Source: Angelakisella sp. (lineage in GTDB: Bacteria > Bacillota > Clostridia > Oscillospirales > Ruminococcaceae). From it: DNA of 64,000 bases. Location of the stretch: assembly GCA_022794295.1 (NCBI GenBank), contig JAAWEO010000001.1, positions 6,969 to 70,968 of the forward strand, written 5' to 3'. Shown here piece by piece: positions 22,060 through 30,396 of this stretch. The notes under the pieces are model-generated. The model saw only the letters and a list, made by a program, of their open reading frames with translations, was not told the DNA's origin and searched no databases. Position numbers and translations under genes: made by a program. Each line of letters starts with the position of its first letter. Positions within the stretch are counted from its first letter, which is position 1.

Positions 22060-22665
22060 ATGACCTACGGCTACATCCGCGTTTCCAGCACCGACCAGAA
22101 CGAGGCCCGGCAGCTTGCGGCCCTGCGGGACAGAGGGATCCCCCGCGGAAAAATTTACACAGACCGGCAATCCGGCAAGGATTTTCAGCGGCCGCAATAC
22201 CAGCGGCTGCTGAAAAGGCTGCGGCCCGGGGACCTGCTCTGCGTCCTCAGCATCGACCGGCTGGGGCGCAATTACGGCGAAATTCTGGAGCAGTGGCGGA
22301 CCCTGACCAAGGAAATGCTGGTGGATGTCTGCGTCTTTGATATGCCCCTGCTGGATACCCGCAGCGGAAAGGACCTGATGGGGACCTTCATCGCCGACCT
22401 GACCCTCCAGATCCTTTCCTTTGTGGCCCAGAAGGAGCGGGAAAACATCCACCAGCGCCAAGCGGAGGGCATCGCCGAGGCCAAAAAGCGCGGGGTCCGC
22501 TTCGGGCGCCCATATCTGCCAACGCCGGAGAATTTTTCCATAGTTGTGTCCCAATGGGAAAGCGGCCTCATCTCCTTTGAGGATGCGCTGGAAACAACCG
22601 GCCTGTCCTACGGCACCTTCTACCGCCGTTTGCGGGCGCACCGGGACGATGTACAGACAACCTGA
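22060..22665 (+). CDS. Small serine recombinase (resolvase/invertase family)
   Basis: [26 protein letters not shown] and a C-terminal HTH (SYGTFYR). Confidence 0.94.
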
Positions 22666-22674
22666 ACACAAAAA

Positions 22675-22851
22675 GAACACTATCAAAAGGTATACTTTTT
22701 GGTAGTGTTCAGCTTATGACGATGTTTTGTGCAATTCTGCTTCCAGAACTGCTTTCACTATTGCTTATTCGGTCAATCTACTGAAAACTAAAGGGGTTCT
22801 GCAAAATTTTTTCTTACTATCAAAAGGTATACTTTTTGATAGTAAGAAAAA
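22675..22851. repeat. Pair of 28-bp palindromic recombination-like sites flanking a putative invertible segment
   Basis: ACTATCAAAAGGTATACTTTTTGGTAGT (22679-22706) and ACTATCAAAAGGTATACTTTTTGATAGT (22816-22843), both with a central AT. Confidence 0.85.
22766..22792 (-). promoter_or_regulatory. sigma28 (FliA/SigD)-like promoter inside the putative invertible segment
   Basis: Minus strand TTTAGTTT-N11-ACCGAATA versus consensus TAAAGTTT-N11-GCCGATAA. Confidence 0.45.
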
Positions 22852-22870
22852 GCGCACGGAGGCAGGAAAA

Positions 22871-23152
22871 ATGCTGGTTTTAACACGGAGGCTTGGGGAA
22901 TTTCTGGTCCTGAATGACAACATCTTTATCAGCGTCTTTGAAGGGGGCAACGGCGACCAAGTGAAAATCGCCATCGAGGCCCCGGAGGATGTGAAGATCG
23001 CCCGGAGCGAGATGTTCGCGGACTGCGAGGAGGTCCAGCGGAAGCTGGAGGCCATCCGGTCCAAGAAGGTGGGCAGGCGGACCAAAAAGACCCGGAAGGA
23101 AATGGAGCGGCTGGGCACTGTCAAAAGTCCCTCCCAGGAAGCTCCCCGGTGA
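22871..23152 (+). CDS. csrA: Carbon storage regulator CsrA
   Basis: MLVLTRRLGE...QVKIAIEAPEDVKIARSE plus a basic C-terminal tail. Confidence 0.88.
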   Translation: MLVLTRRLGEFLVLNDNIFISVFEGGNGDQVKIAIEAPEDVKIARSEMFADCEEVQRKLEAIRSKKVGRRTKKTRKEMERLGTVKSPSQEAPR

Positions 23153-27803: not shown

Positions 27804-27825
27804 CCAAAGGAAGGGAGAAAGCGCG

Positions 27826-29034
27826 ATGGATAAGCCGCAGATCGAGAAGATCCTTTCCCTGCTGGAGACAATAGGCCAGGGTTTGGAACACCTGCAAACC
27901 CACGAGGACGAAACCGTCCGGCAGGCGGTCCTTGCAGGCAGGAAGGCAGTAACGGCCGAGATCGAGAGTGCCCTTGGCAGGTCCCTGACCCAGCAGATCA
28001 ACGCCAATGCCCTCAACGATGGGGAGTGGCTGGGAGCTATATACCGGATCGTGGAGCAGTTGGCGGATCCTTTTGTGCCCCAAAACACCTATGACCAAGA
28101 GTTTATGAACCTGATAAGTCAGCTTTGGCAGACCAACGAAGCCGCCCTTCTCCAAGGGATGAAACAAGTGCTGCACCAATGGAAACAGAGCGTCAAAGGT
28201 GTAGATGCTTGGAACGCTTTCGTAGAGTATTTCGAGAAATACCCCCTGTGGGGGACCCTCTACCCGGAGCGGGGGGACTTCGACACCCTCCAGCGCCGGG
28301 CGGCGGTCCTCAAGCGCCACAGCTATGACTTTTTGTGGCTCTACCGCCGCTTGGAGGACTACCTTTCCAAGCGCACCCTTGCGGCGATTTTAATTAACTG
28401 GGCGGTCCTGAACATTGATGCCCTGTTAAAGGTCAATTCTATCTTCCCGGACTACTGGGAGCCGGACCTGTTCCCCACCAACAGGGATGATGTTCTGGTG
28501 GATGTGGGGGCCTATACCGGGGATTCCATCGCCCAGTATGTACAGATGTACGGCAAGGAGTACAAACGGATCTATGCCTACGAAATTTCCCCGGAAAGCT
28601 GCGCTGCCATCCGGGATACCGTTAAGAAGCAGGGGCTCCATGATGTGGTCATCTGCAACAAAGGGGCTGGGTCGGCCCCCGGGGAACTGTTCCTCAGCCA
28701 GTCCACCGACGCCTCCGCCAACCAGCTCAGCGCGGAGGAGACCTCCGGCCAGCGCATCCGGGTGGTCCCCCTGGACGATGACCTCCCGGAGCCGGTGACC
28801 TTCCTGAAGATGGACATCGAGGGGGCGGAGTGGGACACGCTGCTGGGCTGCCAGCGGATCATCGCAGAGGAACATCCCAAGCTGGCTATTTGTGTGTATC
28901 ATGGATATGACGACCTGTGGCGCATCCCCGCCCTCATCGACAGCATCTACCCGAATTATGAGTTTTACCTGCGTCACTACGGCGGCAATCTCAACCCCAC
29001 GGAATTTGTGCTGCTCTGCCGGCCCCGCTCTTAA
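27826..29034 (+). CDS. FkbM-family methyltransferase
   Basis: VDVGAYTGD, FLKMDIEGAE, PKLAICVYH. Confidence 0.9.
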   Translation: MDKPQIEKILSLLETIGQGLEHLQTHEDETVRQAVLAGRKAVTAEIESALGRSLTQQINANALNDGEWLGAIYRIVEQLADPFVPQNTYDQEFMNLISQLWQTNEAALLQGMKQVLHQWKQSVKGVDAWNAFVEYFEKYPLWGTLYPERGDFDTLQRRAAVLKRHSYDFLWLYRRLEDYLSKRTLAAILINWAVLNIDALLKVNSIFPDYWEPDLFPTNRDDVLVDVGAYTGDSIAQYVQMYGKEYKRIYAYEISPESCAAIRDTVKKQGLHDVVICNKGAGSAPGELFLSQSTDASANQLSAEETSGQRIRVVPLDDDLPEPVTFLKMDIEGAEWDTLLGCQRIIAEEHPKLAICVYHGYDDLWRIPALIDSIYPNYEFYLRHYGGNLNPTEFVLLCRPRS

Positions 29035-29058
29035 AAACAGGAAGGTTGGTGCGATATT

Positions 29059-30396
29059 ATGGAAAATCAGCAGTCCCTCGATTTTTTGTCCCAGCTTTGG
29101 GAGCTGTTCGGAACGGTGCGGGAGGGGGCGGCCTATCTTGCGGCCCATCCGGAAAATACACAGATGAAAGCCGATGTGTCCGCTGGCTTGCGGGTGCTTT
29201 GCACACACCTTCGAGCGGCTGTTTCCTGCGTGCCGGAACCAAAGGAACTTGCCGATTCGGTTTGTTCCAAGTTCCAGATTCTTGCCGCAGAAGCAGGGGG
29301 AGGAAGTGTGGATAATGTGAAATTAAGTCAAGCAGTTTCCGCATTTACCGATCTTCTTTCCCAGGAGTACATCCACAGGCTCTCCTCGGTGCCGTATCTT
29401 CCCCGGGAACAGGCGGGACCCATCTTCAATTTCTGCGCCGGCGCTCCCCGGGAATATGAAACCATCTACCGCCTGATCTTCATCCTCTGCGAAAAGGCGG
29501 CGGTCTCCATGCCCCGGGAGTCCTTTGACTGGACCATCCGGGCCATGGAGGAACACCCAGAGCTGCTTTCCGGCGACCATATGCCCCACCCAGAGTACCG
29601 GTACCGCCCCTCGAAGCAGCGCACCTTCCACCGCTGCCCCATCTGCGGCGGGGAGGGCACTCCCTATCACCGCGCCTTTGCCTACCGCATGATCGACTTT
29701 GACTACCCCCACCTGCCTGCAAAGCTCTGGATGCGGTGCGGCGGCTGCGGCAACCTGTACACCTATCAGTACCCGGAGGAGCTTCTGACCCAGGCGGACC
29801 ATCCGGCCCTGATCCGGCCGGATCCGGAAAAGGCCCTGACTGCGGTCCGCCAAGCCAACGCCATCATCCTTTCCACCTGGTCCGCCATCCTCAACAAGCT
29901 GGGCGGCTACACAAAGGGCCGGGAGCTGCTGGAAGTGGGGATCGGCGAGGGCTGTCTGTTAGCGGTGGCGCTGGAGATGGGCTACGCGGCGGACGCTGTG
30001 GAGATCGTGGCGCAATCCGCCCAGGAGGTGGCGGACATTTTGAGGATCCCCATCTGGAACGGCGATTTTCTGGACTACCACCCGGACAAGCGTTATTCCG
30101 TCATCATCATGGGGGATGTCATCGAGCATGTCACCGACCCGGAGCGGGCGCTGCGCAACGCCCGGGAGCTGCTCGCCGAGGACGGTGTGCTGTGGCTCTC
30201 CACCCCGAACTTTGAGGGCAGCTTTACCCGGATGCTGAAATTCAGCGACCCCATGTGGCTGGAGCCGTACCACATCAGCTATTTTTCCTTTGCCGGGATA
30301 CGAACTCTCGCCGAAAAGTGCGGCTTTACGGTGCGGGAGTATCTTACCAGCAACCGGTATAACGGGTCGATGGAGTTGATTTTGACGAAGGGGTAA
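29059..30396 (+). CDS. Class I SAM-dependent methyltransferase with a Zn-ribbon
   Basis: CPICG...CGGCG, LLEVGIGEG, GDVIEHV, LSTPN. Confidence 0.88.
   Translation: MENQQSLDFLSQLWELFGTVREGAAYLAAHPENTQMKADVSAGLRVLCTHLRAAVSCVPEPKELADSVCSKFQILAAEAGGGSVDNVKLSQAVSAFTDLLSQEYIHRLSSVPYLPREQAGPIFNFCAGAPREYETIYRLIFILCEKAAVSMPRESFDWTIRAMEEHPELLSGDHMPHPEYRYRPSKQRTFHRCPICGGEGTPYHRAFAYRMIDFDYPHLPAKLWMRCGGCGNLYTYQYPEELLTQADHPALIRPDPEKALTAVRQANAIILSTWSAILNKLGGYTKGRELLEVGIGEGCLLAVALEMGYAADAVEIVAQSAQEVADILRIPIWNGDFLDYHPDKRYSVIIMGDVIEHVTDPERALRNARELLAEDGVLWLSTPNFEGSFTRMLKFSDPMWLEPYHISYFSFAGIRTLAEKCGFTVREYLTSNRYNGSMELILTKG

Follow-up and report, generated by a model that had tools for sequence, protein, structure and literature searches.

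We report a flagellin cassette with an invertible DNA segment, carried by an integrative and conjugative element (ICE), in a 64,000-nt stretch of contig JAAWEO010000001.1 (positions 6,969 to 70,968; assembly GCA_022794295.1, Angelakisella sp.); we refer to this whole stretch as the window. The cassette consists of seven co-oriented parts on the + strand: a small serine recombinase gene, a pair of recombination sites, csrA, a flagellin gene, a GT2 glycosyltransferase gene, and two methyltransferase genes (Pfam scans). A 137-bp segment before csrA is found inverted, for this allele and in relatives, and it holds a promoter motif identical to that of the flagellar promoters of the genus. We consider it likely that this is a phase-variable alternative-flagellin cassette, riding as ICE cargo in a flagellated mouse-gut bacterium of the Oscillospiraceae. 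The host genome is a metagenome-assembled genome (MAG; 85.5% complete, 307 contigs, 2.39 Mb), and the window is on its largest contig. An earlier note on this DNA had proposed the same co-oriented set, each member of which is present at or near the place where it had been put, and the suggestion that the module is phase-variable is borne out by the flipped form of the same allele described below.

Inversion of a 137-bp segment before csrA

The features of the cassette are as follows.

22060..22665, + strand: small serine recombinase, presumed invertase, 201 aa (PF00239, E 1.5e-28)
22679..22706, no strand: recombination site 1, a 28-nt near-palindrome with centre GTATAC and central AT
22693..22829, no strand: invertible stretch, 137 bp from crossover to crossover (locus L165 matches its in-silico inversion; in the relative L102 the corresponding segment is reversed against L109 and L115)
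22766..22792, − strand: predicted promoter of sigma-28 (FliA/SigD) type, −35 TTTAGTTT, −10 CCGAATAA
22816..22843, no strand: recombination site 2, a 28-nt near-palindrome
22871..23152, + strand: csrA paralogue, 93 aa, with a basic C-terminal tail (PF02599, 62 bits)
23260..23312, + strand: flagellin 5′ leader, with a hairpin at 23265-23281 that has GGA (23273-23275) in its loop, and the Shine-Dalgarno region GGAUGGAGG at 23297-23305
23313..25424, + strand: flagellin, 703 aa (Flagellin_N, Flagellin_C)
25557 (or 25581)..27803, + strand: GT2 glycosyltransferase, ~740 aa (PF00535)
27745..29034, + strand: FkbM-family methyltransferase (PF05050), kept behind GT2 in L153-L157
29059..30396, + strand: class I S-adenosylmethionine-dependent methyltransferase (Methyltransf_23, PF13489), with synteny kept in L153-L157

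The segment inverts, in this allele as well as in its relatives. Other assemblies encode the exact recombinase protein in the same ICE neighbourhood, and five of the six shown have a switch that is base-for-base that of the window. A contig with the same allele (L165; ENA ERZ14889340 NODE_6403) has, over 340 nt, the flipped form predicted by an in-silico inversion with crossovers set between 22692/22693 and 22829/22830, including the predicted hybrid site, in which the left half of site 1 is joined to the reverse complement of the left half of site 2. This junction is not an assembler error, since in that orientation the sites share only ~7 nt of identity across the centre. When metagenomes were scanned with site 2 and the start of csrA as anchors, 12 true loci were recovered, with the segment oriented as in the window in nine, cut off in two, and flipped in one (L102), where it is the exact reverse complement of that in L109 and L115 and lies between identical flanks. 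Among the Desulfovibrionaceae, the inner segment of L034 is reversed relative to L027 and L029. Many contigs of recombinase relatives end just 3′ of the recombinase gene, as is expected where both orientations coexist. Logan contigs of two DNA and two RNA runs showed no joint with a change of strand at the switch; among those from DNA, one runs through the unflipped switch and another breaks off within site 1.

The predicted promoter inside the segment has its −35 element TTTAGTTT as the reverse complement of 22785-22792 and its −10 element CCGAATAA as the reverse complement of 22766-22773, with 11 nt between them. The same TTTAGTTT-N11-CCGAATAA, together with the start of the leader, also precedes resident flagellin genes in three genomes of the genus (L136-L138). 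In the 2.39-Mb assembly the motif occurs only twice; apart from the switch, it stands 80 nt upstream of the classical sigma-28 operon flgM-flgN-flgK. Because the motif is shared with the resident flagellin genes and the flgM operon, the flipped DNA is, judged by its sequence, a copy of the flagellin promoter of the genus, and its activity would depend on FliA. The window represents the OFF state, as the promoter points away from csrA; it faces csrA in L102, in L165, and in L153, which is in the ON orientation. A consensus scan found no sigma-70 promoter within the segment in either orientation. A read-through or terminator model of the switch was dropped in favor of the sigma-28 promoter; the hairpin and T-run before site 2 failed the terminator rule.

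The recombinase gene lies outside the flipping segment, its stop 13 nt before site 1. Its product has the catalytic domain, including the active-site serine, with a YIRVSSxDQ motif that aligns to Sin/resolvase residues 1-10. Of the relatives with solved structures, Bin3/Sin (E 1e-30) and gamma-delta resolvase (8e-20) score best, and Gin reaches only 4.5e-14. By these comparisons the enzyme is nearer Sin/Bin3 than Hin/Gin; “Hin-like” describes its function and not its subfamily. The two sites, 137 bp apart, agree at 27 of 28 positions, and the site pattern has four matches over both strands compared to zero expected (100 shuffles). Recombinase relatives of 58-83% identity are likewise followed by paired sites, 135-156 bp apart, and in many Clostridia and Desulfovibrionaceae such relatives have an inverted-repeat pair immediately behind them. 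We infer that the cassette recombinase does the flipping.

The same recombinase family and type of site pair also occur before secreted or surface proteins with signal peptides (L012, L013, L016, L021, L024, L028, and others), where the flipped segments hold sigma-70 promoters, e.g. TTGATT-17-TGCTATAAT on the minus strand of L021; gut Clostridia seem to use this arrangement as a general toolkit for phase variation. Six loci from one metagenome series (L087, L097, L100, L102, L109, and L115) have a near-identical switch, csrA, and flagellin 5′ end, while their recombinase alleles differ markedly (67-78% identity to that of the window, by DNA-level tblastn), as might result if cassettes had recombined with one another in or close to the sites. 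The switch is present once more in the host assembly (contig C106:1-160; locus L142). This contig begins with one half of site 1, which is followed by 105 nt homologous to the invertible segment and oriented like it, and then by a site 2 that is perfectly palindromic. Neither csrA nor a flagellin gene comes next; after ~290 nt in which no gene is convincing, there is a convergently oriented Na+/H+ antiporter gene.

ICE carriage and the probable flagellin modification genes

The flagellin cassette lies inside an ICE as cargo, as had been proposed earlier. The mobility genes around it are as follows.

11602..15553, − strand: integration module, comprising two large serine recombinases that flank a fragment (PF00239, PF07508, PF13408)
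33716..50973, − strand: transfer module, with coupling protein, primase-like protein, MobL relaxase, M23 hydrolase, VirB4-like ATPase, and TrbL
33716-35506: coupling protein
36417-38585: MobL relaxase
42080-44443: VirB4-like ATPase
48771-49622: TrbL

Integrase, relaxase, coupling protein, and VirB4-type ATPase, the combination by which we recognize an ICE, thus form a single block in the window. Five further assemblies, several of them independent and from mouse gut, contain this block together with the cassette, and the switch stretch is present in sequencing runs from 13 studies. Beyond the transfer module are genes for a SpaA adhesin, a sortase, and DNA methylases, and the right end of the ICE falls beyond the window. 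Among the ~50 large open reading frames (ORFs) scanned in the window, none is flagellar-related besides the cassette flagellin and csrA, in agreement with the earlier note.

The first 160 aa of the cassette flagellin are 95% identical to a resident flagellin of another genome of the genus (G001), and its middle is 47% identical to the flagellin of L005, a locus on a contig of that same genome. The protein is predicted to be a filament subunit that fits the machinery of the genus while presenting a different surface. Among 28 other genomes of the genus, none has a close homologue of the GT2 protein. The protein comes from a large family with members encoded directly behind flagellin genes (e.g. 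L153 and L154), some of them fused to an FkbM domain; it is probably a flagellin glycosyltransferase. The linked genes would together serve glycosylation of the flagellin, and we take csrA, flagellin, GT2, and the methyltransferase genes to be co-transcribed. The earlier note proposed a search for the synteny on ICEs of other gut genomes. The synteny does recur in relatives, with L153 having the full set (recombinase, switch, CsrA, flagellin, GT2, FkbM, and methyltransferase), while the settings of the relatives examined, including L153, look chromosomal and are not ICEs.

Several other features of the window deserve mention. Its leftmost 8 kb hold a chromosomal type I-C CRISPR-Cas system with its array, which extends over 4170-6453 with at least 37 repeats and lies immediately left of the mobile DNA. 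A Y-family polymerase gene is present in two copies (8209-10496 and 19295-21222; 80% aa identity) 10.7 kb apart, each followed by an ORF of ~141-144 aa; one copy is left of the ICE integrases and the other within the ICE, as if part of another, related element had been left behind. A second small serine recombinase gene (32612-33217, − strand), whose product is 61% identical to the cassette recombinase, was considered as a second switch and rejected, as it has one partial site (32581-32597) without a partner. It abuts a low-GC insert (30644-32560) of three genes, encoding two unknown proteins and an M48 peptidase.

CsrA, the host flagellar genes, and competing interpretations

The cassette regulator is CsrA (PF02599) and has no homology to FljA, so that any likeness to the latter is functional only. 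Its true start is at 22871, the longest ORF beginning too early. In alignment it falls in a clade apart from the resident CsrAs of the genus, and its C-terminal part is unlike that of the FliW-linked ones. The spacer between csrA and flagellin is conserved and folds into a stem, with a tip hairpin that displays GGA in its loop and is kept with compensatory stem changes in L005, L007, L008, and L085; in two relatives the loop reads UUGGAC, a poorer CsrA match. In Firmicute flagellin leaders, CsrA classically binds at a GGA hairpin and at a GGA-containing Shine-Dalgarno sequence; here, the hairpin and GGAUGGAGG are candidates for the two sites. A second sigma-28 promoter in this spacer was rejected, as its candidate −10 is not conserved among relatives. 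The resident flagellin leaders of the genus have CAAGGAUG in a stem-loop and AAGGAGG at the Shine-Dalgarno position; CAAGGAUG is the motif reported for high-affinity CsrA binding in related csrA-tldR-fliC loci (PMC13418256), where tldR encodes TldR, a nuclease-dead TnpB.

By these motifs, CsrA most likely binds GGA sites in flagellin leaders. We judge it likely that the cassette CsrA acts on its own flagellin leader, and see even prospects for its also repressing a resident flagellin in the manner of FljA; the two actions are not mutually exclusive. Regulation of its own leader is at least as likely as the FljA role because that leader has the conserved GGA hairpin and GGA-rich Shine-Dalgarno sequence, and repression of a resident flagellin is plausible because resident leaders carry CAAGGAUG in a stem-loop.

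The earlier proposal had hinged on flagellar genes and fliA in the host, and these are present. The assembly encodes FlhA (830 bits) with FliA adjoining it (227 bits, above the curated cut-off), a FlgL-type hook-associated protein, and the flgM-flgN-flgK operon; with FlhA, FliA, and FlgK/L/M/N in place, the host can therefore be regarded as flagellated. No flagellin or csrA other than the ICE copies was found in this 85.5% complete assembly; a resident flagellin for the cassette to silence is thus absent from it. A resident fliW-csrA pair is present in 8 of 18 genomes of the genus, among them G001, which has a resident flagellin along with its switch-linked csrA-flagellin. The pair of G001 stands behind flgL and a gene with a domain of unknown function (DUF). 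In the host, this DUF gene (97% aa identity to that of G001) is followed, in place of fliW-csrA, by a terminator and unrelated GC-rich DNA (C181:2012-2624). The pair may truly have been lost here, although contig C181 stops after another 600 nt.

In the mechanism that we propose, the Sin-like recombinase would bind the two hix-like palindromes and exchange strands at the central AT, flipping the 137 bp between the crossovers. In the OFF state of the window, the promoter would fire toward the 3′ end of the recombinase gene, leaving csrA and flagellin silent. In the ON state it would transcribe csrA, flagellin, and probably GT2 and the two methyltransferase genes, whose products would decorate the filament. 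Expression of the cassette would require both the ON orientation and the late flagellar sigma factor of the host.

Several observations weigh against a phase-variable cassette working in this way. L165 (10606-11527) leaves the flipped segment at window-equivalent 22805 and jumps to flagellin position 24487, with 781/781 identity onward and only CA as microhomology at the join. The jump is a 1.68-kb deletion or a chimeric join; since L165 breaks inside the flipped segment, it does not reach the junction on the right that this allele would have in the ON form. Assemblies are overwhelmingly OFF, as are those five of six for this allele; among 401 family genomes the OFF pattern has four matches and the ON pattern none. 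RNA contig pieces from two runs are of low depth, with none over the switch, and the promoter is assigned by motif identity. The symmetric central AT leaves the sites without intrinsic polarity, and the linkage of contig to host rests on the binning of the MAG. Finally, fliW, whose product could relieve repression of the cassette flagellin by CsrA, was not found in the host assembly.

One competing interpretation, in which the segment is no switch, takes the recombinase as an ICE resolvase and the palindromes as res-like or operator sites; we regard it as very improbable. It can draw on the same lack of polarity, on Sin/Bin3 and gamma-delta resolvases being the best solved relatives, and on the second recombinase copy at 32612-33217, 61% identical and without a site pair. 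It is contradicted by the same allele and close relatives being found flipped with junctions exactly as predicted, and it fits poorly with the predicted flagellar promoter inside the segment, with a 137-bp spacing unlike that of res subsites, and with the distant relatives, most of which have asymmetric cores (GTGTAC versus GTACAC) in inverted orientation. If the segment is a switch, the cassette CsrA could still tune only its own flagellin, like the FliW-CsrA-Hag homeostasis of Bacillus and with no FljA-like action. The conserved GGA-loop hairpin and GGAUGGAGG Shine-Dalgarno sequence, with their compensatory changes across relatives, agree with this, as do the single flagellin assembled from the host and the position of csrA beside the flagellin gene, an ordinary Firmicute arrangement (Bacillus subtilis fliW-csrA-hag). 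We nonetheless think it somewhat unlikely: any CsrA should bind the high-affinity CAAGGAUG in the stem-loop of the resident leaders, the UUGGAC loop of two relatives is a poorer match, and the host assembly has no FliW found to close the homeostatic loop. In related csrA-tldR loci, moreover, RNA immunoprecipitation sequencing (RIP-seq) enriched the 5′ untranslated region (UTR) of the other flagellin (PMC13418256).

Alternatively, the cassette may hold the only flagellin and CsrA of the host, with the switch turning flagellation on and off as in Clostridioides difficile and no swap of filaments. The assembly, with one flagellin and one csrA, both on the ICE, and with fliW-csrA absent from the syntenic spot where a close relative has it, is as this would predict. 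Three points make it a rather unlikely account: the MAG is incomplete and in 307 contigs, with C181 ending shortly after that spot; conserved flagellin ends often break assemblies; and G001, in the same genus, has a resident flagellin with fliW-csrA as well as the switch-linked copy. In a further reading, the ICE would deliver a self-switching filament kit (flagellin, glycan enzymes, and a FliW-independent CsrA) into the FliA hierarchy of the recipient, where the ON state would replace or silence the resident flagellin without the RNA-guided TldR of the chromosomal relatives; in the present host, the cassette might even have become the sole flagellin source. We hold this full scheme to be doubtful. 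The phase-variable alternative-flagellin cassette carried as ICE cargo remains our preferred reading.

Relation to known switches and significance

The earlier note took no such system to be described in Firmicutes, a claim that has been overtaken. Walker et al. (Nat Microbiol 2026, PMC13418256; bioRxiv 10.1101/2025.07.22.666180) report chromosomal csrA-tldR-fliC loci in Oscillibacter and Flavonifractor, with hin genes immediately upstream, ~120-bp inversions that carry a FliA-dependent promoter, and CsrA RIP-seq in which the 5′ UTR of the other flagellin gene is enriched. These loci, from Oscillospiraceae and so from the same bacterial order, share with the present cassette a small serine recombinase directly upstream, an invertible stretch of ~120-137 bp with a FliA-type promoter, and csrA and fliC downstream. 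They differ in that the present cassette has no TldR and no guide RNA, has the order csrA-fliC, encodes a CsrA of another clade, and is ICE-borne with GT2 and two methyltransferase genes, whereas the published loci are described as chromosomal. There is no tldR ORF between the switch and fliC and no PF07282 match in the host genome, and an Rfam scan of 21500-25600 gave no RNA family match, only chance hairpin hits. The published type is also seen in four of our loci (L042, L049, L055, and L076), where the recombinase and switch are followed by a TnpB-like gene of ~400 aa and then by CsrA and flagellin, and where the recombinase shares 59-62% identity with that of the cassette.

The parallel drawn in the earlier note with hin-fljBA of Salmonella enterica proves closer than it had claimed, as the segment, like the H segment, holds a promoter of the sigma-28/FliA type. 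Both systems have a serine recombinase and two short palindromic sites, both place a promoter of this class within the segment that flips, and in both the operon downstream encodes an alternative flagellin and a post-transcriptional regulator. Here, however, a Sin-like recombinase is encoded outside a 137-bp segment, whereas hin lies inside one of ~1 kb; no Fis enhancer is known; and the regulator, CsrA, is unrelated to FljA, is encoded before the flagellin, and has only candidate targets. The flagellar switch of C. difficile (RecV; PMC5386303, PMC7446863) is also a short invertible element that controls flagellar genes, in a Clostridium relative. Its recombinase, in contrast, is a tyrosine recombinase encoded elsewhere, and the element lies in the leader of the early flgB operon, acts after transcription initiation in a Rho-dependent manner, and governs all flagella as well as toxins (PMC5386303, PMC7446863).

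Mobile elements with a hand in flagellin expression have been described before. The FR-phi prophage of Enterobacter (PMC13418256) carries its own flagellin and a repressor of flagellin expression; it is a phage and not an ICE, its repression is RNA-guided and transcriptional (TldR), and its flagellin has no invertible promoter (PMC13418256). CsrT of Legionella pneumophila (Abbott et al. 2015, cited in PMC5655016) is the product of an ICE-borne csrA-like gene and able to repress flagellin and motility when expressed; it comes from Gammaproteobacteria, regulates ICE traits, and has neither a linked flagellin nor an invertible promoter. The FliW-CsrA-Hag system of B. subtilis likewise has csrA beside the flagellin gene and a leader with a GGA hairpin and a GGA-containing Shine-Dalgarno sequence. 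Here there is no fliW in the cassette or the assembled genome, and CsrA differs in its C-terminal part from the FliW-linked resident CsrAs of the genus.

The core mechanism is thus already published; what is new is its carriage on an ICE, the absence of TldR, and the linked glycosylation genes. Loci with and without TldR offer a clean natural comparison for the role of the linked CsrA. Flagellin is a main target of gut immunity (TLR5 and antibodies) and of flagellotropic phages. By traveling on an ICE, a promoter-flip switch that has a glycosylation set and no RNA-guided repressor could pass the flagellar antigen type, and the on/off control over it, horizontally between commensal Clostridia.

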